A stretch of 64,000 nt of DNA from PVC group bacterium (GCA_024231215.1 JAAEQR010000072.1:65210-129209); one strand, 5' to 3'; numbered from the stretch's first letter, positions 30,923 to 63,240 are shown. A program made the numbers and translations. Notes: generated by a model not told the origin, from the letters alone.

Positions 30923-30932
30923 GGGCGAAACT

Positions 30933-43667: not shown

Positions 43668-43784
43668 TTAAATGTAAATTTTTTAAACTTTATAATAGTT
43701 TATTTAAAAGAATTATTTTGTAATTATATTTGATTTATCATTGGAGATAGATCACTTATTATATTTAATACTTTTTAGTAAACT

Positions 43785-43814
43785 TGACATATTTATTTGT
43801 CCTAAGGTATAATA
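43785..43814 (+). promoter_or_regulatory. consensus sigma70 promoter TTGACA-18nt-TATAAT upstream of fabG
   Basis: Perfect hexamers at 43785-43790 and 43809-43814. Confidence 0.55.
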
Positions 43815-43870: not shown

Positions 43871-43893
43871 TTTTCCAACCAAGGTACACGGTA

Positions 43894-44640
43894 GTGGCTA
43901 ATTTAAAAAATAAAACAGTCATAATCACCGGCGGTTCCAGAGGCATTGGCAAAGCTTGTTGTCTGGCGTTTGCACAGGCAGGTGCTAATGTAATTTTTAC
44001 CTTCAGTAAAAGTAAACAGGAAGCAGACTCTTTAGAAAAACAGATAAATGATATAAATGCAAACTGTTTAGCTATTCAATCCGATATAAAAGACTATGAG
44101 CAATGTCGTGAAGTAGTTGTAAAAAGTATAGAAAAGTTCGAAAAGATTGATATCCTAGTTAATAATGCCGGAATTACTAAAGATAAGGCATTAATGATGA
44201 TGTCTGTAGAAGACTGGAAAGATGTTATTGATACTAATCTGGGTGGAGTTTTTAATATGTCCCGTGCTGTAATTACTACCTTTTTAAAACAAAAAGAGGG
44301 GTGTATTCTTAATATGAGTTCGATTAGTGGAATGGTAGGCATGCCCAGACAGACTAACTATAGCGCGTCTAAAGCAGGTATAATTGGATTTTCTAAAGCA
44401 TTGGCTAAAGAGGTGGCACCTTATAATGTGAGAGTTAATACGGTTTGTCCGGGTTTCGTTGGGACGGACATGGTTGATAATTTGCAGGATAGCGTTAAGG
44501 ATAATATTGCAAAATCTATTCCGGTAAAGAGAATTGGAGATGCCGAAGAAATAGCGGATCTCTGTGTGTTTCTGGCATCGGAAAAAGCACGTTATATTAT
44601 CGGTGAGACGATAAAAATAGACGGTGGTTTGGCAATATGA
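43894..44640 (+). CDS. fabG: 3-oxoacyl-[ACP] reductase
   Basis: SDR: TGGSRGIGKA, NNAGIT, catalytic S-Y-x3-K (YSASKAG), PGFVGTDM. Strong similarity to E. coli FabG throughout. Confidence 0.85.
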   Translation: MANLKNKTVIITGGSRGIGKACCLAFAQAGANVIFTFSKSKQEADSLEKQINDINANCLAIQSDIKDYEQCREVVVKSIEKFEKIDILVNNAGITKDKALMMMSVEDWKDVIDTNLGGVFNMSRAVITTFLKQKEGCILNMSSISGMVGMPRQTNYSASKAGIIGFSKALAKEVAPYNVRVNTVCPGFVGTDMVDNLQDSVKDNIAKSIPVKRIGDAEEIADLCVFLASEKARYIIGETIKIDGGLAI

Positions 44641-44656
44641 AAAATAAAAAAGAGAG

Positions 44657-44920
44657 GTGAATATGGCTGAGACAATTAATTTTGAAGAGGTAAAGACAGA
44701 GGTAAGGAAAATTGTCGCGGAAATTATCGAAACTTCCGAGGAAGAATTGAAAGATGACGCAGAATTTGTGGAAGATCTGGGTGTGGATAGCATGATGGCC
44801 CTGGAGATTGTTGCGGTTATCGAGAAGAAGTTTAAGATAACTATTCCGGAAGAAGAAATCCCGAACATTGGTTCTTTACAGAAGATATATGATATTTTAA
44901 AAAAGAGAATGGCTAGTTGA
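44657..44920 (+). CDS. acyl carrier protein
   Basis: 87 aa, acidic. Phosphopantetheine-attachment site LGVDSMMALEI (DSL-type Ser). Confidence 0.8.
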   Translation: MNMAETINFEEVKTEVRKIVAEIIETSEEELKDDAEFVEDLGVDSMMALEIVAVIEKKFKITIPEEEIPNIGSLQKIYDILKKRMAS

Positions 44921-44931
44921 TCTAACTTGAT

Positions 44932-45528
44932 ATGGGATATTGGATAGTCAGAACGATTTTTGTTGTGATCATAAAGGGATTATTTCGTGTTAAAATAGAA
45001 GGAACTGAACATATCCCGAAAGAGAGCAATTATATCATTGTTGCGAATCACGCCAGCTGGCTTGATCCGATGGTTATGGTTGCGGTAATTCCGTATAAAA
45101 TCTATGGCGTTGCGTTACGTTCTTTATTTCGTATAAAGTGGCTGCAAAGAACGTTAAAAGCACTAGAAGCAATTCCGACTGGTAATTCCTCAGGGCAAGC
45201 ACTTTCTTTATTAATGAAAAACAAGACAGTTGGTTTATTTCCGGAAGCAGGATGTAGTCGCGATGGCAAACTGCGCCGATTTAAAAATGGTGCAGCAGTA
45301 TTGGCTTTAAGAAGCGGTCGGCCTGTTGTTCCCTGTGGGATTAGCGGCTCATATGAAGCTATGCCGCGACATTCTCGATTTCCGAAACTCTTTTCTCGGA
45401 TTACTGTAAAAATTGGCAAACCTTTATATTTTCTCAAAGAATTCGATGAGCTTATTGATCCATTTTTACTGGAAGAAAGTACAGATAAGATAAAGACAGC
45501 GATAGAAAGATTGTGTTATGAACGATGA
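44932..45528 (+). CDS. lysophospholipid/1-acylglycerol-3-phosphate acyltransferase family (PlsC-like)
   Basis: HX4D motif VANHASWLDP, FPEAGCSRDG motif III, PVVPCGISG motif IV. Confidence 0.75.
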   Translation: MGYWIVRTIFVVIIKGLFRVKIEGTEHIPKESNYIIVANHASWLDPMVMVAVIPYKIYGVALRSLFRIKWLQRTLKALEAIPTGNSSGQALSLLMKNKTVGLFPEAGCSRDGKLRRFKNGAAVLALRSGRPVVPCGISGSYEAMPRHSRFPKLFSRITVKIGKPLYFLKEFDELIDPFLLEESTDKIKTAIERLCYER

Positions 45529-47086
45529 TTCGCTAATCCAAATACAATTTAGCCGTGTTATTCACGCGAAGAAATGGAAAGTTATTCGTACACTTACCCG
45601 TGTCTGGGAATTACCCCGCCTTGTGCATAGTATCAAAGAAGTAACGGTACTACAAAGAAGCAAGCGTACTCTGAAGACTAAATGGCATATTGAGGTAAAC
45701 AATGTTCCTATTTCCTGGATTGAGGAGGAAACCTTGTGCTTACAAGAGAACCGGATTTGCTTTCGTGCTGTAGAAGGTGATCTAACTAATTTTTCCGGTG
45801 AGTGGAATTTTCAAGATCATCCGGAAGGGACGCAGGTGTCTCTTAGTGCGAAAGTTCGTTTTGATATTCCGGCAATAGGGCAAGTGAGCGGCCCTTTTAT
45901 TCAACAGCTGTTAACCCGAAACTTTGAAGCAATAATGGATGCTTTTGAACGGCGATTGGTTTCTCTTAGATATTCCGGGTATAAGAAAGGAGATACAAGT
46001 CAACTAGCTGGTTTTGGGGTAATTGGCCACTTATATAATTTTAATCATCTAGAAAAATGTTTGAAAATGTTACAGCCTGATTTTGTAATGCCTTCAAAAG
46101 AATTTTTAAGCCAGCTTTTTTATATCACTCCGTCTTTTAAACTATACGATATTCTGAATTTCAAATCAAAAACAGGCCAAAGCGTTAATGGTTGTTTTAT
46201 TGTGGCTACGTTTATCCCTGAAATGATAGACAAAGATATCTGGGCAGTCTATTCGAAAGTTATAAAAGCTTGTAAGGTTGCGGAAAAGCATGGGACGGGT
46301 ATTGTCGCTCTGGGTGGATTTACTTCGATTGTTGGGGAACGTGTTAGTCAGCAGATGAATGATGATGTTGATGTCCCGGTTACTACCGGCAATGCGTTTA
46401 CTGCAGCAATGACTATTGCCGGAATAGAAAAAGCGGTTTGTCGAATGGAAAAGAATTTGAATCAGATGACCTTAACGATTGTGGGAGGGACTGGAGATAT
46501 CGGTAGTGCCTGTGCTCGTGTTTTTGCTAGTCGTGTAAAAAAATTGATTTTAACGGGCCGGACCAAGGGGCATCTGCGTAATCTGCGCAATGAATTAACC
46601 AAAAATGGATCAGCTCGTGTCATAGAGACTACGGACAATCAATCTGCAGTTAAAGAAGCAGATGTTGTTATAGCTGCGGCAAGTGCTTCAGCGTCTATTC
46701 TTGATATTAACTGGTTTAAACCCGGGGCGATTATCTGTGATGTGGGTTATCCTAAAAATGTTTCTTATAGGTTTAACTCCCGGGAGGATATCTTTGTTTT
46801 TTCCGGAGGGCTTACGAAATCCCCGACACAACTTCAATTACCGATCGATGTGGGATTGCCGAGTCCTGAAACTATTTACGGGTGCTTTGCCGAGGCGATT
46901 ATCCTGGCTTTGGAAAAAAGGTATGAACAGTTTAGCTTTGGCCGGGGCAATATCACAGCGGAAAAGATTGAAGAGATTAGGCTGCTAGGGGCAAAACATG
47001 GATTTGAAACAGCTGATTTTTTCTGGGGACACCAGGCAATTGATGAATCAATGATTGAAAGAATTAAAAAAGCGGCGTATGTTTAA
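45518..47086 (+). CDS. SRPBCC (polyketide cyclase/START-like) domain fused to acyl-ACP reductase (cyanobacterial AAR-like, fatty-aldehyde forming)
   Basis: aa 165-522 align motif-for-motif with cyanobacterial acyl-ACP reductase: FGVIGHL, ALGGFTSIVGE, TTGNAFTA, IVGGTGDIGSACARVF (Rossmann), LILTGRT, DVGYPKN, YGCFAEAIILALE, SFGRGNITAEKIEEIRLLGAKHGFE. aa 1-150 form a Bet v1/SRPBCC-like lipid-binding fold region. Confidence 0.75.
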   Translation: MNDDSLIQIQFSRVIHAKKWKVIRTLTRVWELPRLVHSIKEVTVLQRSKRTLKTKWHIEVNNVPISWIEEETLCLQENRICFRAVEGDLTNFSGEWNFQDHPEGTQVSLSAKVRFDIPAIGQVSGPFIQQLLTRNFEAIMDAFERRLVSLRYSGYKKGDTSQLAGFGVIGHLYNFNHLEKCLKMLQPDFVMPSKEFLSQLFYITPSFKLYDILNFKSKTGQSVNGCFIVATFIPEMIDKDIWAVYSKVIKACKVAEKHGTGIVALGGFTSIVGERVSQQMNDDVDVPVTTGNAFTAAMTIAGIEKAVCRMEKNLNQMTLTIVGGTGDIGSACARVFASRVKKLILTGRTKGHLRNLRNELTKNGSARVIETTDNQSAVKEADVVIAAASASASILDINWFKPGAIICDVGYPKNVSYRFNSREDIFVFSGGLTKSPTQLQLPIDVGLPSPETIYGCFAEAIILALEKRYEQFSFGRGNITAEKIEEIRLLGAKHGFETADFFWGHQAIDESMIERIKKAAYV

Positions 47087-49268
47087 TCAATTATTCTCCT
47101 TATCCAATTATTATTTAAATCCGTTTGCAATGCCGGTATTTCTGGTAAGTATAACTATTTTTTTTATTGGATCGGTTGTATTATTCCAGAACAGGCGGTC
47201 GCTTATTAATATATCTTTCTTTTTAAAATGTTTTAGCGCTGGATTTTGGTTATTTACAGCTTCGATTGTGTATTGTTGTTTGAATGAGGCAGTAGCACAT
47301 ACATTGTATAAATATTTTACTTTTCTCGGTGTTGTTAGCATTGGTCCGAGTCTGTACTTTTTCTCCGTATGCTGGTCTAATGTTGCCAAGCGTCAGAAAT
47401 ATATGATCCCGTTGGTATACATAGCTTTTTATGTTCTTTATGGAGTAACTGTAACTACGGATGTATTTATCCTGCCGGGTATGCGGAAATATTTCTGGGG
47501 GTTGTATCCGATTTATGGGCAGGCAATGGGTGTATTCGTGATAATGTTTACGACTACATATTTACTTTCTTTCATGAATACATTTAATGCGTATCACAGG
47601 GAAACAATTCCGATTAAGAAAAGACAAAAAGGAATTATTGCGTTTGTTCTCGCCTTAGGATATCTGGGATCAATTGATTTTATTTCAAAGTTTTTTGATT
47701 ATACGGTTTTTCCTGTCGGATATCTCGCTATTTTTGTCTATATTTCTCTTGTTGCTTATTCAATTGTGCGCTATCGTGCTTTTGATATTGAAACAGTAAT
47801 ACATAAGACAGCTTTATGGGTTTTGTCTTTTTCTTTTGTTGTTATTCCGGTATTTTTTCTTTACGACTGGTTATTGTCGCATATTGAATTGAAGATTATT
47901 AAATTCGCTTTATGGACTGCGACTTTTCTGATTTTTGCTTTATATCTGCGTGTAGTTCAGCCAAAAATAGACCATATATTTCAACGTCGCAGAGCTGATT
48001 TAGAAATTATTTCCAGAATGTTTATCGAAGAACTGGTGCATTTAAAAGGCCTGAATAATCTTTTGCGTTTGATAAAAGATACGATTGCGGATGTTTTGTA
48101 TTCTCAACAGGTAGATATATTTATTTACAATCAGGAGCGAAAGATTTTTGATTTATTTAACCAGATAAGCGAGGCTAAGCAGAGAGCTTTTCTTAAGGAC
48201 GATGACCGGTTTTTAGAATGGCTGACTAAAAACAACAGAATAGCATATAAAGAGTTTATTTATTTAGATCCCCAATACGCGAAAATAAGACAAGCCGCGA
48301 AGAAATATTTTGCGCTTAATGATGCGGTTTTAGTTATTCCTTTAATTGCAGACGGAAAACTGCTTGGGGTGATTAATTTAGGAAAGAAGGCAAACTTAAA
48401 ACGTTACACGGCAATGGAGTTTAATTTTTTGAATACTTTAAAAAACGAATCAGCTATAGCTATTTCTAATTCTCTTTTATATGAGAATATGGAAGATCAA
48501 GTCAGGCAGCGTTCAAAAGAATTGTTGGAAATGCAGAAACAGCTGGTGCAGGCAGAAAAGTTAGCTACTGTCGGTACTTTAGCCGGTGGGGTAGCACATG
48601 AAATAAATAATCCGCTGGCGGCTATATTGACCAATGTGCAAATGCTTTTGCATTCGGCTGAGATTGCCGATCCATCGGATAAGGAGTCGCTTGAACTTAT
48701 TGAAGAGGCGACGCAACGCTGTCGGGTTATTGTGAAGAAACTAATGGTTTATGCCCGGAAGCCATTGCATTCTTCAGAAATCTCCCGGATAAACCTGTCT
48801 GCAGTGGTGAATAATGTTATTTCATTTCTTGAATATCAATTAACTCAGGAGAATATTGCTGTGGTTATTGATATTCAAGACCTTGGATGTGTTATAAAAG
48901 GTAATCAGAATGAACTAGAGCAGGTAGTTACGAATATGATCCTGAACGCAAAAGATGCTATTAAAAAGGTTAAAAGGGGTGGTACAATAGAAATGTCTTT
49001 AGTTACGAAAGGTAGATGGGTTTGCCTTGAGATTAAAGACGAAGGAGAGGGAATACCCCAGGAAATAAAATCAAAGATATTTGATCCATTTTTTACGACT
49101 AAAGATGTCGGGAAAGGGTTAGGGCTTGGGCTTTCTATTTGTCAGTCTATTATCGAACGTCACGATGGGGTGATTACGGTGGATTCAGAGCCGAACAAGG
49201 GGGCGGTTTTCACGATAAATCTGATTAGAGCAGAAGCAACAGATAAAATTACAAAAAATAAATCTTGA
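47055..49268 (+). CDS. sensor histidine kinase with N-terminal multi-TM (7-8 TM) sensor, GAF-like region, HisKA and HATPase_c
   Basis: H-box VAHEINNPLAAIL, N/G boxes (MILNAKDAI; DEGEGIP; GKGLGLGLSI). Paralog of the HK at 53875-56064. Confidence 0.8.
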   Translation: MKELKKRRMFNQLFSLSNYYLNPFAMPVFLVSITIFFIGSVVLFQNRRSLINISFFLKCFSAGFWLFTASIVYCCLNEAVAHTLYKYFTFLGVVSIGPSLYFFSVCWSNVAKRQKYMIPLVYIAFYVLYGVTVTTDVFILPGMRKYFWGLYPIYGQAMGVFVIMFTTTYLLSFMNTFNAYHRETIPIKKRQKGIIAFVLALGYLGSIDFISKFFDYTVFPVGYLAIFVYISLVAYSIVRYRAFDIETVIHKTALWVLSFSFVVIPVFFLYDWLLSHIELKIIKFALWTATFLIFALYLRVVQPKIDHIFQRRRADLEIISRMFIEELVHLKGLNNLLRLIKDTIADVLYSQQVDIFIYNQERKIFDLFNQISEAKQRAFLKDDDRFLEWLTKNNRIAYKEFIYLDPQYAKIRQAAKKYFALNDAVLVIPLIADGKLLGVINLGKKANLKRYTAMEFNFLNTLKNESAIAISNSLLYENMEDQVRQRSKELLEMQKQLVQAEKLATVGTLAGGVAHEINNPLAAILTNVQMLLHSAEIADPSDKESLELIEEATQRCRVIVKKLMVYARKPLHSSEISRINLSAVVNNVISFLEYQLTQENIAVVIDIQDLGCVIKGNQNELEQVVTNMILNAKDAIKKVKRGGTIEMSLVTKGRWVCLEIKDEGEGIPQEIKSKIFDPFFTTKDVGKGLGLGLSICQSIIERHDGVITVDSEPNKGAVFTINLIRAEATDKITKNKS

Positions 49269-49360: not shown

Positions 49361-49747
49361 ATGAAGGGCCGGATTTTAATTATTGATGATGAGGTGATTA
49401 TCACCAAAAGTCTGCAGAAACTTCTCTTAAAACAGAAGTTTGAAGTTATTGTTGCTAATAATGGGACAGAGGCGATGCAGGCAGTACAAAATGAAAAAAT
49501 TGATTTAATTGTCTGTGATGTGATGATTCCGGAAATGGACGGGATTGAGATCATAAAGCTAATAAGAGAATATCTTACCCAACAAGCAAAACCCCTGATC
49601 CCAGAAATATTGATTACCGGTTATGCGGATGAGGAAAAGTATAAGAGTGCGGTAGATTTAAAAGTTGCGGACTACCTGTATAAACCTTTTGATACGAGTG
49701 AATTCCTGGAGGTTATTGAAAAGAATTTAAATGGTGTTAAAAGATAA
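49361..49747 (+). CDS. stand-alone CheY-like response regulator receiver
   Basis: ILIIDDE...DLIVCDVMIPEMDG (phospho-acceptor Asp), conserved T/K positions. RBS GGGAGGAA. Confidence 0.8.
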   Translation: MKGRILIIDDEVIITKSLQKLLLKQKFEVIVANNGTEAMQAVQNEKIDLIVCDVMIPEMDGIEIIKLIREYLTQQAKPLIPEILITGYADEEKYKSAVDLKVADYLYKPFDTSEFLEVIEKNLNGVKR

Positions 49748-49759: not shown

Positions 49760-50992
49760 ATGGAGAAAAAGCGGGTAGTGATTACAGGAATCGGTGTTAT
49801 TGCGCCAAACGGGATGGGCAAAGATGCGTTTTGGCAGGCATTAAAAAAGGGCAAGTCCGGGATTAAAGAGCCAACGCTTATAGATGTAACTTATTTTAAA
49901 AATAAATTAGCTGGTGAATGCAGTGATTTTGATGCGGAAACATTTTTAGGTAAAAAAGGTTTGCGTAATTTAGACCGGAGTACAAAACTTGTTTGCTCTG
50001 CGGCAAAAATGGCTTTAGAGGATGCTTCTTTTGAAATGACTGATGATAATAGTGACGATGTTGGAGTGGTGACCGCAACGACTTTGTCTATCAGTGCGGA
50101 TATTGCTAAGTTCAGCAAAGAAATAGCAGATGAAGGATTTAAGTTTACTAATCCGGCGTTATTTCCTCCGACAACAATGAATTTCCCTTCCAGTCAGATT
50201 TCTATCAGGAATAAAATAAAAGGGTTTAATACCACGGTGGCCTCAGGATATACTGCAGGCTTAGATGCTCTTAAATACGCGGTAAATTTTATAAGCTTAG
50301 GAAGGACAAAAGCAGTATTGGTAGCCGGGGTAGAAAGCCTCGTCTTTTCTAATTACGTAGGGTTTTCTAAGGTTGGGTTTCTGGCCGGAGCAAAAGGTCC
50401 GGAACTATCCTGTCCTTTTGATAGCCGACATAACGGAATTATTCTTGGGGAAGGGACAGCGGCTTTATTAGTTGAATCTGAAGATAGTGCTTTAGAACGC
50501 AATGCGCGGATTTACGGAGAAGTGTTGGGGGTAAAGACATTTTTTGACGCGTATAAGCCGGCAAAATATGACCCTAAGGTTCGAGGTTTAAAACAGAGTA
50601 TGACTAAGGCTTTGGAGAGTTCTGGTTTGAGTGAAGAAGATATTGATTATATTTGTGCTTCGGCAAATTCTGTGGAAGAACAGGATAAATTAGAGACTCT
50701 AGCTATAAAAAATGTATTTGGTCTTTACGCAGAAAATATCCCCGTGAGTTCTATAAAGTCTATGATTGGAGAAAGCATTAGTGCTAATGGAGTACTGCAG
50801 ATCGCGGCAAGCCTAGGGGCAATCAACGAAAGTTTCATTCCTCCGACGATTAATTATGAGAATCCTGATCCGGAGTGTGATTTAGATTATGTGCCCAATA
50901 CTTTCCGAAAACAAACCGTAAATAATGTGTTAATTAATAATTTCGGTCCGGGAGGCAATAACGCAGCAGCAGTGATTGCTAAATATGATTAA
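49760..50992 (+). CDS. ketosynthase-like protein lacking the Cys-His-His triad (chain-length-factor-like KS partner)
   Basis: Thiolase/KAS fold throughout, but the active-site Cys position reads TTVASGYTAG and the His motifs read CASANS / GESISANG. Confidence 0.7.
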   Translation: MEKKRVVITGIGVIAPNGMGKDAFWQALKKGKSGIKEPTLIDVTYFKNKLAGECSDFDAETFLGKKGLRNLDRSTKLVCSAAKMALEDASFEMTDDNSDDVGVVTATTLSISADIAKFSKEIADEGFKFTNPALFPPTTMNFPSSQISIRNKIKGFNTTVASGYTAGLDALKYAVNFISLGRTKAVLVAGVESLVFSNYVGFSKVGFLAGAKGPELSCPFDSRHNGIILGEGTAALLVESEDSALERNARIYGEVLGVKTFFDAYKPAKYDPKVRGLKQSMTKALESSGLSEEDIDYICASANSVEEQDKLETLAIKNVFGLYAENIPVSSIKSMIGESISANGVLQIAASLGAINESFIPPTINYENPDPECDLDYVPNTFRKQTVNNVLINNFGPGGNNAAAVIAKYD

Positions 50993-51021: not shown

Positions 51022-52230
51022 ATGAATAAAAAACGCAGGGTGGTTGCAACAGGACTTGGAGTGATATCCTCGGTTGGCATTGGCAAAGACGCGTTTTGGA
51101 AAAGTGTAACCAGCGGGACTTCCGGAATTACGGAAATTACTTCAGTTGACACCACAGAGTTTAACTGCCATTACGGTGGAGAAGTTAAAAAATTTAACCC
51201 TGAAGAATTTATTCCCAAAAGAAAAGTTCCTTTTTTAGGTAAAACTTCGCAATTAGCATTATCTGCGGCATCACTTGCATTAAAAGATGCTGGATTTTCT
51301 GAAAAGAAAGTTCCTTCTCAAAAGTTTGGGGTGATTATCGGGACTACTGTTGGCGAAAGACCTTTAGAAGAATTGGTGCAGGCTTGGGCCAGAGGCGGGT
51401 TAAAAGAGGTAGATCGAGGAAGGGTTTTTCAGGCTTCGGTGAATAATATTTCGGCTAATGTTGGGATTCATTTTAAAGCCATGGGGTTGAATCATGTGTT
51501 TCCGACAGCTTGTGCTGCCGGTAATTATTGTATTGGCTATGGGATGGATTTAATCCAGAGCGGTGATTTGAATTTTGTTCTAGTCGGAGGTGCGGAAGCA
51601 TTTTCACGGGTGGCTTATGTCGGATTCCAAAGGCTTTACGCAATGTCTCCGGATAAATGCCGGCCGTTTGATAAAAACAGAAAAGGGATGCAGTTAGGAG
51701 AAGGCTCGGGTGTTTTGCTTTTAGAATCAATGGAGTCTGCTATAAAACGAAAAGCACATATTTACGCGGAAGTTTTAGGCTACGGTCTTTCCTGTGATGC
51801 TTATCATGCTACAGCTCCGGATACACAAGGTATTGCTAAAGCCATGGGCAAGGCTTTAAAAGATGCGGATACATTACCCGAAGATATAGATTATATTTGC
51901 ACACATGGAACCGGTACTCCGATGAACGACAGAATAGAAACTGCGGCAATAAAAGAAGTGTTCAAAGATAAAAGTAAGGATCTTGTGATTAATTCTCTGA
52001 AATCCATGCTTGGGCATACCATGGGTGCGGCTTCGGCAATTGAAGCAGCGGCGTGTTGTATGGCATTGGAAGATGGGATAATTCCTCCGACAATCAACTA
52101 CGATGAATCCGATCCTGAATGTGATTTAGATTGTGTACCGAACAAAGCAAAAAAGAAGAAAATAAAAGTAGCTTTAAATAACGGGTTTGCCTTTGGCGGC
52201 AATAACTGTAGTGTGGTGTTTGGAAAATGA
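51022..52230 (+). CDS. beta-ketoacyl-[ACP] synthase (FabF/FabB-like), catalytically complete
   Basis: Active Cys in PTACAAGNY (codon at 51511-51513), His motifs CTHGTGTP and SMLGHTMGAAS, C-terminal NxFGFGGxN. Confidence 0.8.
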   Translation: MNKKRRVVATGLGVISSVGIGKDAFWKSVTSGTSGITEITSVDTTEFNCHYGGEVKKFNPEEFIPKRKVPFLGKTSQLALSAASLALKDAGFSEKKVPSQKFGVIIGTTVGERPLEELVQAWARGGLKEVDRGRVFQASVNNISANVGIHFKAMGLNHVFPTACAAGNYCIGYGMDLIQSGDLNFVLVGGAEAFSRVAYVGFQRLYAMSPDKCRPFDKNRKGMQLGEGSGVLLLESMESAIKRKAHIYAEVLGYGLSCDAYHATAPDTQGIAKAMGKALKDADTLPEDIDYICTHGTGTPMNDRIETAAIKEVFKDKSKDLVINSLKSMLGHTMGAASAIEAAACCMALEDGIIPPTINYDESDPECDLDCVPNKAKKKKIKVALNNGFAFGGNNCSVVFGK

Positions 52231-53271: not shown

Positions 53272-53865
53272 ATGGATTTTTTATGTATGATAAAAAATAG
53301 AGCAGTTACAAGGAGATATGAGGATAAATCAGTTCCTGTTGAAATTGTTGAAAAGATTATTGATTCAGGTGTATGGTCTTCATCAATACACGGTTTTCAA
53401 CCATGGAAATTTATGGTTATAAATGGTAAGGATAAAATTAAAAAAATATCAGAGATTGTTTCTGATGTGCCAGTAGATATAGCTGGTGATAGTATGGGGA
53501 AATTGGTGAATTTTTCAGCAAGGGTTATTGCCGATGCGCCTTTATTGATTATGGTGTATAATACAAAAGCATTTACTAATGCTGCTGGTAAATTTTTTAA
53601 AATCAATCGGGAATATATAGAAATAGCACAAATGACAGAAATTGAAGGTATCTCCGGAGCGATTCAAAATATGATAATGATGGCGGAAAGCTTAGGAGTT
53701 GGGAGTTGTTGGTTAACTACTCCTTTGTTTTGCGAAAGCAAAATAAACGATTTTTTAAATATTACAGATAGGTTAGTTGCAGTAATAACATTTGGTTACT
53801 CGATGCAGAAAGAAGTTCGTTCTCCCCGAAAGAATGTTGAGACCAAAGTTAATTACGTGCGATAA
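53272..53865 (+). CDS. nitroreductase-family (FMN-dependent NAD(P)H oxidoreductase) protein
   Basis: RAVTRRYEDKSVP N-terminal motif. ~200 aa. Conserved GxxSCW-like region (GVGSCWLT). Confidence 0.6.
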   Translation: MDFLCMIKNRAVTRRYEDKSVPVEIVEKIIDSGVWSSSIHGFQPWKFMVINGKDKIKKISEIVSDVPVDIAGDSMGKLVNFSARVIADAPLLIMVYNTKAFTNAAGKFFKINREYIEIAQMTEIEGISGAIQNMIMMAESLGVGSCWLTTPLFCESKINDFLNITDRLVAVITFGYSMQKEVRSPRKNVETKVNYVR

Positions 53866-53874: not shown

Positions 53875-56064
53875 ATGAATTTATTTACAATATCTTCGGT
53901 ATTAATATTTACTTTTACTTTATTAATAGGTATTATTGCTTATTGGAAAGGTACAGATAAGAAAATAACAAAGGTTTGGGCTTTGTTTTGTCTTTCTATA
54001 TCTATTTGGGGGATGGGCGGGTATATATTTTCATCAACAATATCCAAAGATGTAGCTCTTTTAGGATGGAGGATTACTAATATCGGTGTTATCCTTATCC
54101 CTGTGACTTTTTACCATTTTATCTATCTTTTTCTTCGGCTGCACAAGAAATCACATAGAAGAATTTTGATCGGATCATATGTTCTGGGTAGTCTGTTTTT
54201 AGTATTTAATTTTCTGCCACGGCAGTTTTTTGTAGGGGATGTTAGTTGGGTATTTGGTCAGTTTTATTATGGCGATTGGTGGATATGTAAAAGTCCATTA
54301 TATTTATTACTTTACATCCTTTTTTATTGGGTATTACTTTTATATGTATTTACATTGCTTATCACCCAGTATAATCATTTTAGCGGGAATAAAAGAGAGC
54401 AGTTGAAATATTTTATACTGGCTGCTATAGTTGGATGGGTTGGCCCGACTTTAATGTGGCCGATTTGTTTTAGGATATATATATATCCCTATTCAAATTT
54501 TCTCATAGCGTTCTTTCCTTTTATAATTGCTTATGCCATTATAAAACATCGTCTCATGGATATCAAAATTGCACTTACCCGTGGGGCGATATTATTGATT
54601 GTATACGCGTTTATTGTGGGCGTGCCGTTGTTATTTGTTGCTTCCGGGAGGACTTGGCTGACCGGATTATTTAATGATAAATGGTTTTATCCGCCACTGA
54701 TAATGTATACAGTATTGGCATTGCTGGCACCGTATATATATCTTCGTTTGCAGGCAAAGGCTGAGGCAAAAAGAATGCTTGAACAATATCATTTGCATCA
54801 GTCTCTTAAAGCTGCGTCAAAAACTACAATTGAAGTCCAGAGCGTTAAAAAACTATCCAAAATAATTCCTAGATATTTACTTCGTTTATACGGGAGGTTA
54901 AATAATAAAATAACTCACATTAGTTTGTTTCTTATGGATAAAAACAAAAAGATATATCGGTTGAAATCTTCTGTAGGGGATGAGAAACTGCCCAAGGATC
55001 TGAGCATCTCAGAAAACAGTATTTTAGTAGATTGGTTTACAAAAATAAGCCATGAGGTGGTAGAGCAGGGAGTATTAAAAGCCAAAGAAGTGGAAGTCTT
55101 AGTATATGAAGATATAGATTATTGGATGAACGAAGCTAATGTTTTACGTGCGCCATATCGCGGCTTAAAGAAAATCTTGAGAGACTTAAAAAAAACCATG
55201 GAAAGCTTAAACGCGCAGATAATCCTACCTTCTGTATATCAGCAGGAACTGTTAGGATTTTTGATCTTGGGGGAGAAGACTCCTGATTTATATACGAGAA
55301 ATGATATTGATACGTTTTCTATTCTGGCGAATGACAGTGCTATGGCGTTTAAAGCGGCGCGATTGTTTGAAGACTTGAAAATGACTCAAGCCCAGCTTAT
55401 TCAGTCTGAAAAATTAAACCTTTTAGGCCAGTTGGCATCATCCATGGCCCATGAAATTAATAATCCATTAGCGATCATTTCCGGAAATATCCAGCTTTTA
55501 CTTATGGATGTAAAAGACGAAGGGATTCGTGAATTACTTAAGAAAATAGATGAACAGACCGAAAGAGGGTATAAGATAATCCATAGGCTGCTGAATTTTT
55601 CAAAATTGCCGAAAGAAGATATTAAAGATATTGATATGCATGAGACCATAAATGAAACACTGGAATTGGTCAATCATAAAATTATCCATGGCAATATCAT
55701 GCTGGAAAGACACTTTGATGAGGTAAAGATAATAAAAGGCAATCCTATTCAGATACAAGAGGTTTTACTGAATTTGTTTGTTAATGCCATCCAGGCTATG
55801 CCCGAGGGCGGAGATCTAAAGATATATACCAAACAGCTGGATGGTTTTGTCCAGGTTGTGGTTGAGGATAATGGCAAAGGAATAGAAGCGGAAGATGTAG
55901 CTAATATCTTTGATCCTTTCTATACCAAAGGCAAAAAAGACGGAACCGGCCTTGGATTATTTGTCGCCGACCAGATAATGAAGCTTCATAAAGGTAGTAT
56001 TGAACTAAAAAGCAAGTTAGGCGAAGGTACTACATTTACCCTCAAATTCGCGGAGAAATTGTAA
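53875..56064 (+). CDS. sensor histidine kinase, paralog of 47055-49268 (multi-TM sensor + HisKA + HATPase_c)
   Basis: H-box MAHEINNPLAIIS, N box LLNLFVNAIQAM, G boxes DNGKGI / GTGLGL. Confidence 0.8.
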   Translation: MNLFTISSVLIFTFTLLIGIIAYWKGTDKKITKVWALFCLSISIWGMGGYIFSSTISKDVALLGWRITNIGVILIPVTFYHFIYLFLRLHKKSHRRILIGSYVLGSLFLVFNFLPRQFFVGDVSWVFGQFYYGDWWICKSPLYLLLYILFYWVLLLYVFTLLITQYNHFSGNKREQLKYFILAAIVGWVGPTLMWPICFRIYIYPYSNFLIAFFPFIIAYAIIKHRLMDIKIALTRGAILLIVYAFIVGVPLLFVASGRTWLTGLFNDKWFYPPLIMYTVLALLAPYIYLRLQAKAEAKRMLEQYHLHQSLKAASKTTIEVQSVKKLSKIIPRYLLRLYGRLNNKITHISLFLMDKNKKIYRLKSSVGDEKLPKDLSISENSILVDWFTKISHEVVEQGVLKAKEVEVLVYEDIDYWMNEANVLRAPYRGLKKILRDLKKTMESLNAQIILPSVYQQELLGFLILGEKTPDLYTRNDIDTFSILANDSAMAFKAARLFEDLKMTQAQLIQSEKLNLLGQLASSMAHEINNPLAIISGNIQLLLMDVKDEGIRELLKKIDEQTERGYKIIHRLLNFSKLPKEDIKDIDMHETINETLELVNHKIIHGNIMLERHFDEVKIIKGNPIQIQEVLLNLFVNAIQAMPEGGDLKIYTKQLDGFVQVVVEDNGKGIEAEDVANIFDPFYTKGKKDGTGLGLFVADQIMKLHKGSIELKSKLGEGTTFTLKFAEKL

Positions 56065-59083: not shown

Positions 59084-60139
59084 ATGCTGGAAATTTTAAT
59101 AGTTGATGATGAACAGGAAATTTCAGGGGCGTTAAAGGATTTTTTTACAGCCAAGAGTTATAAGGTATTAGTTGCTAATAATGGGGAAGAAGCACTAAAT
59201 ACTGTACGTAAGCATCGACCGCATCTTGTGTTTTTGGATATTCGCATGCCGAAAATGGATGGCCTTTCAGTCCTACGCAATATTCGTGAATTGGATAAAT
59301 CGATTAAAGTAATTATGGTAACTGCTTTTGGCACAAGAGAGATTGTAAATGAAGCTATGCGTTTGGGTGCAGTTGATTTTATCCGGAAACCGTTTACACT
59401 TGAATATCTCGAACATGATGTTATGGAAAAGGTCAATGTTCAGTTATTTGAAGATCTTCGTAATGAAATAGATGGTAAGGACGAACTTATTGACCAGTTG
59501 CAAAAATTGAATAAAAGGGTTTCCCGTAATTTTTATCAAACAATGCTTTCTCTGGCAACGGCTTTAGAAGGCAGGGATCAGTATACACATGGACATTCAG
59601 AACGGGTTGATTTATATAGTAAGCTGATTGCGGAAGAATTAAAAGATAAAAAAACTACAGCGATAACTAATAAATTCTTAGATGATTTGCATATTGAGTC
59701 CCGGTTACATGATATCGGCAAAATTGCGGTTCCGGATGGTATTTTAAATAAACCTAATCGCTTAACTAACGAAGAATTTAATGAAATCAGAAGACACCCT
59801 GGAGAAAGTGCACGTATCTTAGCACCGCTAGAGGGTATTAAAGACCACATTGATGTTGTTTATAGTCATCATGAACGTGTAGACGGGACGGGTTATCCGG
59901 AGCGGAAAACTAAGGAATCAATACCTTTAAGGGCAAGGATTATTGCGGTTGCCGATGCTTTTGATGCAATGACTTCAGATAGACCGTATCGTAAAGCTAT
60001 GACTCGTAAAGCAGCATTTACGGAACTCGAGAAGAATAAAGACAAACAATTTGATGCAACGGTTGTAGATGCATTTTTCAACGCATATAACAAGAAAAAG
60101 GACAAAAGCAATAAAGAAGCAATGGAGTTAATACTCTAA
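59084..60139 (+). CDS. response regulator receiver + HD-GYP (RpfG-like c-di-GMP phosphodiesterase)
   Basis: Receiver (ILIVDDE...LVFLDIRMPKMDG). HD-GYP (HGHSERV, LHDIGKIAVPD, HHERVDGTGYP). Confidence 0.85.
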   Translation: MLEILIVDDEQEISGALKDFFTAKSYKVLVANNGEEALNTVRKHRPHLVFLDIRMPKMDGLSVLRNIRELDKSIKVIMVTAFGTREIVNEAMRLGAVDFIRKPFTLEYLEHDVMEKVNVQLFEDLRNEIDGKDELIDQLQKLNKRVSRNFYQTMLSLATALEGRDQYTHGHSERVDLYSKLIAEELKDKKTTAITNKFLDDLHIESRLHDIGKIAVPDGILNKPNRLTNEEFNEIRRHPGESARILAPLEGIKDHIDVVYSHHERVDGTGYPERKTKESIPLRARIIAVADAFDAMTSDRPYRKAMTRKAAFTELEKNKDKQFDATVVDAFFNAYNKKKDKSNKEAMELIL

Positions 60140-60157
60140 GGTGTCCGGAGGATTATT

Positions 60158-61207
60158 ATGTTGAAAATTCTAGTAGTGGATGATGAGCCGGAAATAACGC
60201 AGCTTTTGAAAAACTTTTTTCTGCGTAAAAATTATGATGTTTTAACTGCTAATAACGGTAGTACAGCGGTTGAGTTGGTAAAAACAGAAAGGCCGCATCT
60301 TGTGTTTTTAGATATACGTATGCCGCAAATGAACGGCTTGACTGCATTACGTCATATTCGGGCATTGGATAAATCGGTCAAAGTGATTATGGTAACGGCT
60401 TTAGAAGACGAGAAGATGGTGCAGGAAGCAGCGGAATTAGGTGCGGTTGATTATGTGCGAAAGCCATTTAATCTGGATTATTTAGAACGCGATGTTATTG
60501 AAAAAGTAAATGCAAAACTTTTTGTCGATCTGCGTTCTGAATTGGAAGAAAAAAGTAAATTAATTGATCAGCTGGCTAATCAGGTAGAGCAGATCAGTGA
60601 TTTGAATGAAAAATTAAAACGCAATTTTTATCAAACGATAGTATCTTTGGCAACCGCATTGGAAGCCCGGGACCGGTATACACATGGACATTCTGACCGG
60701 GTTGATTTATATTCAAAAGTTATTGCCGAGGAATTAAGGGATTCAAAGCAATGGGAAATAGACGATTTGTTTCTGGATGCTTTACATGTTGAATCGCGGT
60801 TGCATGATATTGGTAAGATTGCTATCCCGGATATGATATTAAACAAACCCGGGGTATTGACCGAAGATGAGTATGCACAGATTAAAAATCATCCGGTACA
60901 AAGTGCAAAGATTTTAACTCCCTTAGAAGATCTTAAGAAAAATATTGAAGTAATTAGACATCATCATGAGCGTGTTGACGGCAGGGGATATCCTGATGGG
61001 TTAAAGCATGACGAAATCCCGGCCAGAGCTAGGATTATTGCGATTGCTGATGCTTTTGATGCGATGACTTCGGATCGGCCGTATCGTAAAGCCATGTCGA
61101 TTGCAGAGGCCACAGATCAGCTGGAAAAAGGTAAAGGCGCTCAGTTTGATGCGGAAGTAGTGGATGCATTTAAGAATGCTATAGCACAGGGGAAAATACC
61201 AAACTAA
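60158..61207 (+). CDS. response regulator receiver + HD-GYP, tandem paralog of 59084-60139
   Basis: Same architecture and ~65-70% identical by eye (ILVVDDE...LVFLDIRMPQMNG; LHDIGKIAIPD; HHERVDGRGYP). Confidence 0.85.
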   Translation: MLKILVVDDEPEITQLLKNFFLRKNYDVLTANNGSTAVELVKTERPHLVFLDIRMPQMNGLTALRHIRALDKSVKVIMVTALEDEKMVQEAAELGAVDYVRKPFNLDYLERDVIEKVNAKLFVDLRSELEEKSKLIDQLANQVEQISDLNEKLKRNFYQTIVSLATALEARDRYTHGHSDRVDLYSKVIAEELRDSKQWEIDDLFLDALHVESRLHDIGKIAIPDMILNKPGVLTEDEYAQIKNHPVQSAKILTPLEDLKKNIEVIRHHHERVDGRGYPDGLKHDEIPARARIIAIADAFDAMTSDRPYRKAMSIAEATDQLEKGKGAQFDAEVVDAFKNAIAQGKIPN

Positions 61208-61267: not shown

Positions 61268-62128
61268 GTGGAAAAAATTAAAATAGGAATTATCGGTGGG
61301 AGCGGGCTTTATGATATCGAAGGAGTAGACGATGTAGATACAGTAGCAGTAGATACTCCCTTTGGTGCTCCTTCAGATAAGATTATTTGCGGGACTTTAG
61401 AAGGTGTGAGGTTTGCTTTTTTACCTCGGCATGGTCGCGGTCATAAGATTTCGCCAACAGAGTTAAATTATCGGGCAAATATTTATGCTTTAAAGAGTTT
61501 AGGTGTGGAACAGATAATATCTATATCTGCGGTAGGCAGTCTTAAAGAGGAATTAAAACCACGTGATTTTGTGATTCCGGAACAGTTGTTTGACCGGACT
61601 AAAAGCAGAGTAAGTACTTTTTTTACAGAAGGTATAGTTGCTCATGTAGGGGTGGCTGACCCTTTTTGTCCGGATCTAAGTACTATGGCTTATGAGACAG
61701 CAAAAGAGATTGGAATTTCCGTGCACAAAGGGGGAACTTATGTTTGTATTGAAGGCCCTCAATTCTCAACGCGGGCTGAGTCTAATGTTTATCGTCAGCT
61801 GGGATTCTCAATTATCGGCATGACTAATATCCCGGAAGCAAAGCTGGCCAGAGAAGCAGAGATTTGTTATGTGACTGTTGCGTTGGTTACAGATTATGAT
61901 GTGTGGAAAGAAGATGAAGAGGTTAGTGTGGAAAAAATAATTGCAAATCTAACTGCAAATTCATCCAAGGCCAAAAAGTTCATTCGAGTTATATTGCCAA
62001 AACTTAAGCGTAGCCGCACTTGTGGCTGCCCCGATGCATTAGCTACGGCAATTGTTACGGCGCCGGATGCTATGCCGCAAAAGATCGTTAATAAGCTCAA
62101 GCTTTTGATTGGAAAGTATATTTCATGA
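61268..62128 (+). CDS. mtnP: S-methyl-5'-thioadenosine phosphorylase / purine nucleoside phosphorylase (PNP/MTAP family)
   Basis: IGIIGGSGL phosphate-binding N-terminus. MTAP-like core. C-terminal CGCPDALATAIV. Confidence 0.75.
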   Translation: MEKIKIGIIGGSGLYDIEGVDDVDTVAVDTPFGAPSDKIICGTLEGVRFAFLPRHGRGHKISPTELNYRANIYALKSLGVEQIISISAVGSLKEELKPRDFVIPEQLFDRTKSRVSTFFTEGIVAHVGVADPFCPDLSTMAYETAKEIGISVHKGGTYVCIEGPQFSTRAESNVYRQLGFSIIGMTNIPEAKLAREAEICYVTVALVTDYDVWKEDEEVSVEKIIANLTANSSKAKKFIRVILPKLKRSRTCGCPDALATAIVTAPDAMPQKIVNKLKLLIGKYIS

Positions 62129-63240
62129 AACGGATTTTACTTCTTTATATCTCCAACAATTCAGGTCATCATCGTGCTACTATGGCGATTGAAGAAGCAT
62201 TATATTCTTTGTCGCCTGAGATTAAGGTGATGAATATAAACTGTTTTAATTATACTAATCCAATGCTTGAAAAAGTAATAAACAGTGTGTATAACAAAGT
62301 AATTAAAATTAAGCCGGAAGTTTGGGAATATTTATATGATAATCCTAAGATTGTGCGTCGGTCCAAAAAATTACGCAGGCTTATTCACAAATTCAACTCT
62401 AAAAAACTTAAAAAATTAATTTACAATTTTAAACCAGAGGCAATTGCCTGTTCCCAGGCGTTTCCCTGCGGGATGGTGGCTGATTTTAAAAAAACATATG
62501 CTTTAGATATTCCACTAGTTGGTGTGCTCACAGACTATTATCCGCATTCTTATTGGATGTACGATAATATAAATGGGTATGTTGTCCCGAGTGAACAAGC
62601 TAAAAAACGTTTAGTAGATAACGGTGTGGAAAAAGATAAAGTGTTTGTGTATGGAATTCCGATCAGCCCGACGTTTTCCAATAATCATGACAAGGAATTT
62701 ATTCTTAAAAGCCTGCATTTAGAACCTGATGTGCCTACGATTTTAATTATGGGAGGTGGGCAGGGATTAGGTCCGATAGAAGATCTGGTTTTTGCGGTAA
62801 ATACAATTGAAAAACCATTTCAAATTATTATAATCTGCGGTACGAATAAAAAACTAAAAAAATGGCTGGAAAAGCGTAAAACCCTGTTTAAGAAAAAAAT
62901 GGCAATACTTGGTTATACAAAGCAGATAAACATACTTATGGATATTGCAGACTTGTTGGTAACTAAACCGGGCGGTCTTACTACTGCAGAAGCGCTTACA
63001 AAAAGTCTGCCTGTAGTGATTGTCAATCCTATCCCCGGACAGGAAGCAAAGAATACTGAGTTTCTTTTAAGTGAGGGGGTAGCTGTTAGAGCTAGAAATA
63101 CGCTGGATGCAGCGATTTTGATTGAAGATCTTTTGAATACAACCGGTAAATTAAATAAGATGAAAAAGGCGGCATTAAAACATGCAAAGCCGCAATCTGC
63201 GGTTGATACAGCAAAATTATTATTAAATCTTGTTCAGTAG
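62125..63240 (+). CDS. GT28 MGDG-synthase/UgtP-like diacylglycerol glycosyltransferase
   Basis: N-terminal LLLYISNNSGHHRATMAIEEAL (MGDG_synth domain). C-terminal GT-B half with LVTKPGGLTTAEAL. Confidence 0.65.
   Translation: MKRILLLYISNNSGHHRATMAIEEALYSLSPEIKVMNINCFNYTNPMLEKVINSVYNKVIKIKPEVWEYLYDNPKIVRRSKKLRRLIHKFNSKKLKKLIYNFKPEAIACSQAFPCGMVADFKKTYALDIPLVGVLTDYYPHSYWMYDNINGYVVPSEQAKKRLVDNGVEKDKVFVYGIPISPTFSNNHDKEFILKSLHLEPDVPTILIMGGGQGLGPIEDLVFAVNTIEKPFQIIIICGTNKKLKKWLEKRKTLFKKKMAILGYTKQINILMDIADLLVTKPGGLTTAEALTKSLPVVIVNPIPGQEAKNTEFLLSEGVAVRARNTLDAAILIEDLLNTTGKLNKMKKAALKHAKPQSAVDTAKLLLNLVQ

Follow-up and report, generated by a model that had tools for sequence, protein, structure and literature searches.

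Enzymes of the acyl-ACP (acyl carrier protein) reductase (AAR) superfamily take an acyl group from a carrier thioester onto an active-site cysteine, Cys294 in AAR, reduce it with NAD(P)H and hand the aldehyde, by an exit of its own, to a partner protein bound to the enzyme (PMC8341465; bioRxiv 10.1101/2024.10.28.620694). This partner is the aldehyde-deformylating oxygenase (ADO) for AAR, GSAM for GluTR and a fused aminotransferase for PigE (PMC8341465), with KecF as a further case (PMC6498172). Here, we describe a relative of these enzymes in a stretch of 64,000 nucleotides from a PVC group bacterium (GCA_024231215.1 JAAEQR010000072.1:65210-129209), referred to as the window. The gene, located at 45518-47086, encodes a predicted fusion of a START/SRPBCC lipid-binding domain and an AAR-superfamily thioester reductase. 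Its most distinctive feature is a directional, often translationally coupled link to histidine kinases with a seven-transmembrane (7TM) sensor.

Comparison with described systems

With the AAR of Synechococcus elongatus (6JZQ/6JZU), the reductase part of the fusion shares the two-lobed fold, the cysteine of the CFAEA motif, the TTGN and DxGYPKN loops and the GxTGDIGS motif. Because fold, 35% identity, cysteine and NADP motif are common to both, a ping-pong mechanism with an acyl-enzyme is the default expectation. Yet AAR is cyanobacterial and partnered by ADO, whereas the fusion carries a START domain and lies in a two-component/cyclic di-GMP (c-di-GMP) locus. PigE and KecF, which belong to the biosynthesis of MAP (prodigiosin) and koreenceine, respectively, likewise have their AAR-like domain (4PPM for PigE) fused to a protein that takes the aldehyde, and act downstream of ketosynthase (KS) pairs resembling type II fatty acid synthases (FAS) or polyketide synthases (PKS) (PMC8341465, PMC6498172). 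Their partner is a class III aminotransferase that converts the aldehyde to an amine, whereas the START partner looks non-enzymatic; no aminotransferase is present in the fusion locus. The helix-grip fold of the N-terminal domain is common to TTHA0849, ZhuI and TcmN, but the fusion alone adds a reductase via a 35-residue helix.

The myxobacterial elb system for ether lipids and its synthase ElbD similarly combine acyl activation/ACP, aldehyde reduction, a PlsC-type acyltransferase and NAD-epimerase-family proteins in one locus (PMC9131029). ElbD, however, is a single polypeptide with a FAR-type reductase, an acyl-CoA/AMP ligase, an ACP and an AGPAT-type acyltransferase, whereas the window has separate genes and a reductase of AAR type; a FAAL-ACP-acyltransferase protein occurs in only one related locus (L024). 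Moreover, the acyltransferase is not universal at fusion loci and no ElbB (HAD) gene was seen adjoining the fusion. The wax-ester route of Acinetobacter and Marinobacter combines an Acr1-type reductase, an aldehyde reductase and WS/DGAT. It has a partial parallel in nine to 14 related loci where the fusion is followed by a short-chain dehydrogenase/reductase (SDR) and an HxxxDG acyltransferase of the carnitine-acyltransferase/BAHD/NRPS-C/WS-DGAT superfamily, although this HxxxDG domain is similar at fold level only, has no Pfam model and is not found in the window.

RpfF-RpfC-RpfG (for the diffusible signal factor DSF), CqsA-CqsS and PhcB-PhcS are pairs of a lipid-signal synthase and its receptor. 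In these pairs too, the gene of a lipid-metabolizing enzyme adjoins that of a kinase with a membrane-embedded sensor, and the arrangement typical of this class, a synthase adjoining a kinase whose sensor is wholly membrane-embedded, is found in 58 of 60 fusion loci. The HD-GYP output of the fusion block resembles RpfG and its methyltransferase, dependent on S-adenosylmethionine (SAM), resembles PhcB. The Rpf, Cqs and Phc synthases and sensors nonetheless have no sequence relationship to the fusion or its kinases. AAR and ElbD biology leave the kinase link, the wholly membrane-embedded sensor, the lack of a DNA-binding regulator in the block, the HD-GYP outputs, PilZ-fused relatives and receiver::aldehyde dehydrogenase (ALDH) fusions unexplained.

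Domain architecture and fold of the fusion protein

The open reading frame (ORF) was correctly delimited in a first-pass annotation of the window: it lies on the plus strand, starts with ATG and comprises 522 codons. The START plus AAR-superfamily architecture proposed there agrees with matches in Pfam, NCBIfam and PDB and with an AlphaFold2 (AF2) model compared by Foldseek. In Pfam, the N-terminal domain matches Polyketide_cyc (PF03364; residues 26-138, 49.4 bits against a gathering threshold of 23.4) and Polyketide_cyc2 (PF10604; residues 8-147, 39.6 bits against 27.4), while residues 312-428 form a Shikimate_DH-type Rossmann domain. In NCBIfam, residues 166-498 cover positions 2-336 out of 339 of TIGR04058 (AcACP_reductase) with 187.3 bits (E 4.7e-55), and the model of the PigE thioester-reductase domain (NF053554) scores nearly equally (175.5 bits, E 1.8e-51). 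The closest PDB sequences are AAR (6jzq, E 1.5e-40), PigE (4ppm, 5e-29) and a terminal amidation domain (TAD; 3e-06) for the C-terminal domain, and the START protein TTHA0849 (2d4r, E 6.6e-11) for the N-terminal one. The C-terminal domain shares 35% identity with S. elongatus AAR over 321 aligned positions, and the match is far above chance.

The AF2 model, built from 48 orthologues, has a pLDDT of 86.6 and a pTM of 0.85 and behaves as a single rigid body, with a linker helix that DSSP assigns to residues 121-156. Foldseek ranks AAR chains on top (TMt 0.82-0.85, 31-32% identity), followed by the carmabin TAD. For the N-terminal domain, TTHA0849 comes first (TMt 0.94, 24% identity), and the aromatase/cyclases (ARO/CYCs) of type II PKS and other START proteins come thereafter. 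The domain thus belongs to SRPBCC/START by Pfam scores above the gathering thresholds together with its helix-grip fold. By sequence and fold, the C-terminal domain is a member of the AAR/PigE-N/TAD superfamily of Cys-dependent thioester enzymes (COG5322 type), with Cys456 and the VTTGN loop in place. The model suggests a soluble two-domain enzyme with the START domain rigidly packed on an AAR/PigE-N superfamily thioester reductase.

Within this superfamily, the protein has the acyl-accepting cysteine (Cys456) and the GxTGDIGS NADPH-binding motif of TIGR04058 and shares its end-to-end alignment and two-lobed fold, though its score of 187.3 bits lies below the equivalog cut-off of 449.7. A true AAR orthologue was therefore dropped as an assignment. 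The profile searches that the annotation had proposed accordingly place the two domains in SRPBCC and the AAR superfamily, yet they miss the equivalog level and find the PigE domain equally good. A validated ADO probe (507 bits to PDB 4quw) has no match in the window, as the annotation had stated, nor in any of 89 related loci. Because of the score under the cut-off and this negative result, the fusion is not the equivalog of cyanobacterial AAR. Five of the six motifs quoted as shared with AAR (FGVIGHL, ALGGFTSI, VGGTGDIGSA, DVGYPKN and CFAEA) are present as quoted. The sixth was misquoted: the window has SFGRGNITAEKIEEI, and SWGRNQITIEKMEAI, the SWGRN form, is the cyanobacterial sequence.

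Active-site conservation

In an alignment of 84 fusion proteins, Cys456 is retained in 83 and the GxxGDIG motif in 82 to 84, and Arg348, a candidate ligand of the 2'-phosphate, is present in 81. H171, T289, G291, C407, D408, P412, N414 and E459 are invariant (84/84). By contrast, some loci encode stand-alone AAR-like paralogues just upstream of the acyltransferase in which the catalytic cysteine is replaced by A, S or T and the glycine-rich NADP motif is gone (L004:6114-7124, L017:8276-9394, L019:3-974, L022:7504-8532, L025:8355-9398 and L028:8377-9414). Because its active-site residues are kept where those of the Cys-less paralogues are not, the fusion appears to be under selection for catalysis; the paralogues may serve the active fusion as pseudoenzyme partners. 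By analogy with its characterized relatives, the fusion probably makes fatty aldehydes.

Distribution of the family

An identical protein is annotated in a metagenome-assembled genome of a 'PVC group bacterium'. More than 120 clusters of orthologues with 517-544 amino acids and 58-66% identity were found, nearly all of them labelled Candidatus Omnitrophota/PVC. When one genome per GTDB species was scanned, 555 genomes had a relative, and the best 80 loci are essentially all from Omnitrophota, with a few bins labelled otherwise. Judged from these sequences, the START::AAR fusion appears to mark Candidatus Omnitrophota. The reductase domain itself has a broader family: an all-against-library search returned 370 representatives at E <= 1e-30, mostly stand-alone proteins of about 360 amino acids, among which cyanobacterial AAR is a rather distant member. 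Split versions with a separate START gene directly before the reductase gene occur at L007, L085, L087 and L092. Some relatives with 28-34% identity bear an additional N-terminal PilZ domain or HTH_17 plus PilZ; examples of these HTH_17-PilZ-START-AAR and PilZ-START-AAR proteins are L089:1083-3251 (P0140), L090:715-3060 (P0131) and P0148.

The similarity of the domains had been recognized before, since source annotations already list orthologues under 'fatty aldehyde-generating acyl-ACP reductase' or 'SRPBCC family protein' in some cases. In a limited search of the open-access literature, we found nothing on the phylum-wide START fusion, on its coupling to HisKA_7TM kinases and c-di-GMP components or on the associated HxxxDG acyltransferase domain, and no described ligand for the HisKA_7TM sensor family.

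Conserved kinases and signalling genes

The first-pass annotation had overlooked the sole invariant partner of the fusion, the translationally coupled 7TM histidine kinase system. We called ORFs in 89 loci with a greedy ORF caller, viewed 10 kb on either side of the gene and labelled the proteins by phmmer with those of the window; L002/L003 and L004/L005 are redundant, with identical proteins from the same genome region. A 7TM histidine kinase is encoded at most 3.2 kb downstream of the fusion in 58 of the 60 loci that have at least 3.3 kb of downstream sequence. In 34 of these 60, the distance is at most 300 nt, and stop/start overlaps of -1 to -32 nt are frequent. The downstream kinases come in one to five tandem copies, and an upstream 7TM kinase occurs in only two of 62 loci. 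The link extends to the split version at L007 and to a relative with 38% identity (L008), and the PilZ-START-AAR protein P0131 (34% identity) overlaps a HisKA_7TM-GAF kinase by 4 nt. A PDB sequence search with the 7TM sensor region gave no informative match.

Other members of the neighbourhood recur to different extents. A methyltransferase of about 340 amino acids, a second 7TM kinase and receiver::HD-GYP genes are found in both Omnitrophota clades. The conserved unit is the reductase followed by one or more translationally coupled 7TM kinases and by CheY-like and HD-GYP regulators, together with a SAM methyltransferase. In 35 of 78 loci, the fusion is coupled to a PF01553 acyltransferase; these 35 loci all fall into the clade with at least about 51% identity to the query. 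The clade with 39-48% identity has no PlsC-type gene adjoining the fusion; upstream, it encodes an AcrB-type RND pump along with a pair of small envelope proteins instead. At L057:5063-9683 and about 20 other loci, the order of RND pump, a 200-residue protein with two transmembrane (TM) segments and a secreted, CBM_11-like protein of 202 residues is conserved. Overall, the AcrB-type pump is found upstream in 20 loci and a FadL-like outer-membrane channel in seven; these neighbours are suggestive of export or uptake. An ACP gene is present in only about seven loci, and only two loci, the window and L037, have fabG-ACP directly upstream of the fusion. The 'fabG-ACP-PlsC-AAR' arrangement that the annotation had treated as a unit is hence not conserved, and we dropped it as a functional unit. 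Sets of KS, ACP and ketoreductase (KR) genes, in part with a FabA-ApeI-like dehydratase, lie within 10 kb in about ten related loci.

Variable neighbours

Between the fusion and the kinase, or nearby, a variable set of genes is encoded. An HpnA/OleD-like SDR occurs in 14 loci (TIGR03466, 321-332 bits), a GMC oxidoreductase in seven, a B12-radical SAM enzyme in five and a formyltransferase-like protein in three; the GMC oxidoreductase also follows the HTH-PilZ-START-AAR protein P0140. Extra AAR-like paralogues are found among these genes as well. At L024, the fusion is immediately followed by a FAAL-ACP-acyltransferase of 903 amino acids, which resembles ElbD without its reductase. Together, the variable neighbours point to aldehyde, alcohol and ester chemistry, as read from their predicted families. 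The annotation's idea of a lipid derived from fatty aldehyde or alcohol gains support from PlsC-type acyltransferases, SDR with HxxxDG acyltransferase, GMC oxidoreductases, ALDH and the ElbD-like FAAL-ACP-acyltransferase at related loci. Its comparison with the ElbD trio holds insofar as ACP, reductase and acyltransferase are encoded together (44657-47086), but the ether-lipid step stays an analogy: the ElbD reductase is of another fold family, and no ether-forming enzyme was found adjoining the fusion.

Behind the SDR, in a separate protein or in the same polypeptide, comes a domain of about 500 residues (u511) that is restricted to Omnitrophota and has no Pfam or NCBIfam model. It carries a conserved xHxxxDG motif in 66 proteins and occurs alone or fused to the HpnA-like SDR or an alpha/beta hydrolase, for example at L002:10570-12105 and in the C-terminal 500-550 or so residues at L047:11651-14389, L060, L064 and L070. 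A PDB sequence search gave no informative match for u511. Its AF2 model (pLDDT 86.6, pTM 0.87) matches carnitine/choline acyltransferases, BAHD enzymes, NRPS condensation domains and WS/DGAT with E 1e-10 to 1e-7, at a fold similarity of TM 0.35-0.55. Because of the xHxxxDG motif and these model matches, u511 is predicted to be a new branch of CoA-dependent O-/N-acyltransferases.

Several further arrangements were observed in single loci or small groups. Receiver::aldehyde dehydrogenase fusions lie downstream of the fusion and kinases at L008:13464-15428 and L083:17158-19167, and a receiver followed by ALDH at L042:16875-18819; such proteins would be controlled by phosphorylation and would link two-component output directly to aldehyde oxidation. 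A conserved triad of START, AAR-like and acetolactate-synthase-like thiamine diphosphate (ThDP) proteins is found in a Planctomycetota-labelled clade and at L007 (L007:7512-10901, L092:6552-9873, L085, L086 and L087). It is reminiscent of PigD/PigE, and its products may be of the acyloin type; at L092 it is followed by a BcrAD_BadFG activase and a protein of 1049 amino acids without Pfam matches. Immediately upstream of the fusion at L008:6962-7960, and also at L082, lies a gene of the acyl-ACP-desaturase family (FA_desaturase_2, di-iron, soluble). FA_desaturase_2 and ADO belong to the same ferritin-like superfamily; the ADO probe gives no match to the L008 gene.

The locus in the window

The features of the block in the window are collected in Table 1. 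The annotated order of fabG, ACP, acyltransferase and fusion is confirmed. Start and stop codons were said to overlap. This applies to the acyltransferase and the fusion, which overlap by 11 nt, but gaps of 16 nt and 11 nt separate fabG from ACP and ACP from the acyltransferase, respectively. The stop of the fusion in turn overlaps kinase 1 by 8 nt if the latter starts at ATG 47079, or by 32 nt if at TTG 47055; the ATG that overlaps the fusion stop (ATGTTTAA) is the probable true start. The promoter-like site upstream of fabG is likely the start of the operon in this genome; it is a consensus match alone, and promoter-like sites are in total no more numerous in this region than in shuffled sequence.

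Table 1. Positions of the fusion, its domains and the surrounding genes in the window.
Feature	Position	Strand	Basis or remark
Promoter-like site, TTGACA-18-TATAAT	43784..43813	+	sigma-70 consensus match 12/12, 80 nt upstream of fabG
FabG-type 3-oxoacyl-ACP reductase	43894..44640	+	TIGR01830 300.8 bits (cut-off 297.75), adh_short_C2
Acyl carrier protein, DSM phosphopantetheine-attachment motif	44657..44920	+	PP-binding 53.4 bits; 59 bits with NCBIfam models for ACP, under the cut-off
Small PlsC/Aas-type acyltransferase, 198 aa, HX4D = NHASWLD, FPEAG	44932..45528	+	PF01553 86.8 bits
SRPBCC/START::AAR-superfamily thioester reductase fusion (predicted)	45518..47086	+	ATG start, 522-aa ORF
START/SRPBCC lipid-binding domain and long linker helix	45518..45985	+	aa 1-156; PF03364/PF10604, 2d4r, Foldseek, DSSP
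AAR-like reductase domain	46013..47086	+	aa 166-522; TIGR04058, PigE N-domain, 6jzq, Foldseek
GGTGDIGS dinucleotide-binding motif	46484..46507	+	aa 323-330
Cys456 codon	46883..46885	+	aligned to acyl-accepting Cys294 of AAR
7TM histidine kinase 1	47055..49268	+	7-8 predicted TM helices, GAF-like, HisKA, HATPase
Single-domain CheY-like response regulator	49361..49747	+	syntenic in most loci
KS-beta/chain-length-factor-like ketosynthase	49760..50992	+	active-site Cys replaced: VASGYTAG
KS-alpha, FabF-like ketosynthase	51022..52230	+	active-site Cys (TACAAG); TIGR03150 433 bits, below 493.75
SAM-dependent methyltransferase, 347 aa	52227..53270	+	Pfam; between kinases, in both Omnitrophota clades
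Nitroreductase-family flavoprotein	53272..53865	+	Pfam; matched in window only among compared loci
7TM histidine kinase 2	53875..56064	+	HisKA_7TM 41 bits
Two tandem response regulator::HD-GYP proteins (c-di-GMP phosphodiesterase type)	59084..61207	+	NF053512 197 bits
PNP_UDP_1 phosphorylase and MGDG-synthase-like glycosyltransferase	61268..63240	+	syntenic end of block

The top NCBIfam match of the acyltransferase is the N-terminal domain of acyl-ACP--phospholipid O-acyltransferase (85 bits), and its TIGR00530 score of 78 bits lies below the cut-off of 102.95. A housekeeping PlsC was rejected as its identity in view of this score, the short length, the Aas-type best match and the clade-restricted occurrence. 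The first of the two ketosynthases looks like a chain-length factor since its active-site cysteine is missing, and the pair implies that the two-component block includes a type II FAS/PKS-like elongation system of its own. The first 150 or so residues of the methyltransferase match no family, and a PDB sequence search with this protein gave no informative match. The HD-GYP tandem is syntenic at L001, L014, L015, L061 and other loci; the order of the PNP_UDP_1 and MGDG-synthase-like genes is shared by L001, and the latter gene is also found at L014 and L019. Neither the locus nor the block contains a DNA-binding response regulator, and no AMP-binding gene was found among the window ORFs scanned against Pfam. 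A small HTH_17 gene that precedes the acyltransferase in 33 related loci has no counterpart at 43400-45000 of the window. Three small membrane or secreted proteins at 56173-57733 and 43173-43667 (173, 298 and 164 amino acids) have no family match; homologues of the one with 164 residues lie upstream of the locus at L001 and L037.

The remainder of the window is ordinary chromosome with topA, xerC, kdtA, the bio operon, recJ, gatCAB and others. The biotin operon at 5289-10858 looks complete (BioB, BioF, a BioH-like hydrolase, a BioC-like methyltransferase, BioD and BioA), and an operon of this BioC/BioH type presumably entails a working type II FAS in this organism. At 27971-32246, hemB, a radical SAM/SPASM protein, two NirDL/AhbAB-like siroheme decarboxylase subunits and a class III aminotransferase, probably HemL, are consistent with the siroheme-dependent alternative haem pathway. 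An ORF of 1997 amino acids at 16007-22000 has a single weak Pfam match (PGM_PMM_I, 32 bits); related loci also encode very large proteins, such as one of 8849 amino acids at L007.

Proposed mechanism and alternative explanations

By analogy with AAR and PigE, an acyl chain would move from acyl-ACP onto Cys456, the chain in this genome probably being supplied by the ACP/FabG/KS-alpha-KS-beta set of the operon. NADPH would reduce the acyl-enzyme to a fatty aldehyde, which would enter the pocket of the fused START domain as a built-in acceptor in place of an ADO or aminotransferase partner. From this aldehyde, lineage-specific neighbours could make a lipid of the alcohol or ester type: the PlsC/Aas-type acyltransferase in the window, and elsewhere the HpnA/OleD-like SDR with the HxxxDG acyltransferase, the GMC oxidoreductase or ALDH. 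The membrane-embedded kinase would most likely monitor the lipid made from the aldehyde, or what this lipid does to the membrane. The output of the kinase would run through c-di-GMP and directly regulated enzymes rather than through transcription, as a circuit with a self-produced lipid cue or with feedback. The link to c-di-GMP is drawn from the two receiver::HD-GYP genes in the window and from the PilZ domains fused to distant relatives. On this analogy, we assign a probability of roughly 0.45 to an aldehyde-forming fusion that feeds a lipid monitored by the kinase, as product or through its membrane effect. The more specific component of this reading, that the kinase senses the product of the fusion itself, is possible though doubtful. 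As a whole, the locus points to an uncharacterized lipid-linked signalling or envelope-control system and not to a plain lipid operon.

A number of observations weigh against this enzyme-plus-circuit reading. Both substrate (acyl-ACP or acyl-CoA, and the type of chain) and product are deduced solely from relatives with 30-35% identity, the fusion scores far under the AAR equivalog cut-off, and the superfamily includes members for which other chemistry at the same Cys/NAD site has been proposed, such as the carmabin TAD (bioRxiv 10.1101/2024.10.28.620694). The operon linkage fits a kinase that senses the product and mere regulation or co-expression of a membrane-lipid pathway alike, and the neighbourhood labels depend on phmmer with the window proteins and a greedy ORF caller, with a few duplicate loci among them. 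Wide spread and high conservation of the fusion fit a core envelope function better than the patchy distribution of a quorum-sensing synthase; tandem kinases and RND and FadL-like neighbours, on the other hand, argue for a sensed or exported molecule. In a stronger version of the signalling idea, which we hold to be unlikely, START::AAR would be the synthase of a lipid cue of a hitherto undescribed class that the tandem 7TM kinases sense in the membrane and relay via CheY-like and HD-GYP proteins to c-di-GMP. The cue may be the fatty aldehyde or an alcohol, ester or acyloin derivative of it, and the loop may be closed in relatives by PilZ on the enzyme or by receiver::ALDH acting on aldehyde removal.

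Alternatively, reductase, ACP and acyltransferase could make bulk envelope lipids of the ether or wax-ester type, modelled on the ElbD/elb system or the Acr1/aldehyde-reductase/WS-DGAT route, with a two-component system that merely regulates them, as PmrAB or DesKR do. The shared operon of ACP, PlsC-type acyltransferase and reductase in the window speaks for this, as do the translational coupling of the acyltransferase in 35 of 78 loci, the ElbD-like protein minus reductase right after the fusion at L024, the 14 loci in which NAD-epimerase-family SDRs (compare ElbA/ElbE) follow the fusion with an HxxxDG acyltransferase, the MGDG-synthase-like gene that closes the syntenic block and the phylum-wide conservation, which fits a core lipid function. 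An ElbD-dependent i15:0 aldehyde and reductase-less ElbD homologues outside the myxobacteria have been described (PMC9131029), and ElbD matches were reported in 93 of 267 Omnitrophota metagenome-assembled genomes (bioRxiv 10.1101/2024.06.25.600576). However, neither type of acyltransferase is universal, the clade with 39-48% identity lacking a PlsC-type gene next to the fusion altogether; AGPS, Ger/PlsAR and HAD (ElbB) genes were not seen adjoining the fusion; and the ElbD reductase (FAR/NAD_binding_4) is of a different fold family. A lipid operon under simple control of transcription would normally have a DNA-binding response regulator, which the locus lacks, and one to five tandem 7TM kinases and the stop/start overlap of the reductase are left unexplained. 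Bulk lipid synthesis is an improbable account of the locus. It is quite improbable that START::AAR instead acts mainly as a cytoplasmic co-sensor that reports acyl-ACP, NADPH or lipid status to the kinase by binding, with little or no net catalysis. The overlap with the kinase gene in many loci (-1 to -32 nt) would suggest stoichiometric co-production, distant relatives carry N-terminal HTH_17 and PilZ, START is a ligand sensor in the PYR/PYL receptors, which are among the Foldseek matches, and the same loci also encode AAR-like paralogues that are catalytically dead. We nevertheless give an inactive sensor less weight because the active site is conserved: hardly any of 84 fusions deviates at the cysteine, in the NADP motif or at some dozen active-site residues, which favours turnover, and enzymes that tailor aldehydes or alcohols recur alongside. 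Least probable of all is type II polyketide synthesis, in which the SRPBCC domain would act as aromatase/cyclase on a poly-beta-keto chain that KS-alpha/KS-beta assemble on the ACP, and the AAR-like domain would release a polyketide aldehyde reductively as a secondary metabolite. The window does encode a KS-alpha/chain-length-factor-like pair, an ACP and a KR, comparable KS sets (in part with the dehydratase) lie within 10 kb at about ten loci, Foldseek matches the ARO/CYCs ZhuI, TcmN and WhiE (E 1e-10 to 1e-9), and KecF and PigE exemplify AAR-like domains that release type II PKS/FAS products (PMC6498172, PMC8341465). Most loci, however, have no KS genes within 10 kb on either side, the N-terminal domain is much nearer to the non-enzymatic TTHA0849 (TMt 0.94, 24%) than to the ARO/CYCs (TMt 0.71-0.84, 14-18% identity), and no genes for aromatic-polyketide tailoring were seen.

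Implications for the Omnitrophota

The Omnitrophota are a widespread group of mostly ultra-small and almost entirely uncultured bacteria. To our knowledge, nothing is known experimentally of their lipids or signalling. The fusion gene ranks among their most conserved lineage-specific enzymes, and with it the AAR/PigE thioester-reductase superfamily gains a new architecture, in which a START domain takes the place of an aldehyde-receiving enzyme. The fusion enzymes are also predicted sources of fatty aldehydes and alcohols that are soluble and simple in their cofactor requirement. The coupling to kinases supplies a candidate ligand or pathway for the orphan HisKA_7TM sensor family and outlines a possible new lipid/c-di-GMP circuit. 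Should the kinases prove to have the product of the fusion as their ligand, the system would represent a new type of lipid signalling in bacteria; if the tandem kinases indeed read a lipid cue, the Omnitrophota would possess a phylum-wide circuit of quorum-sensing-like or envelope-feedback nature.

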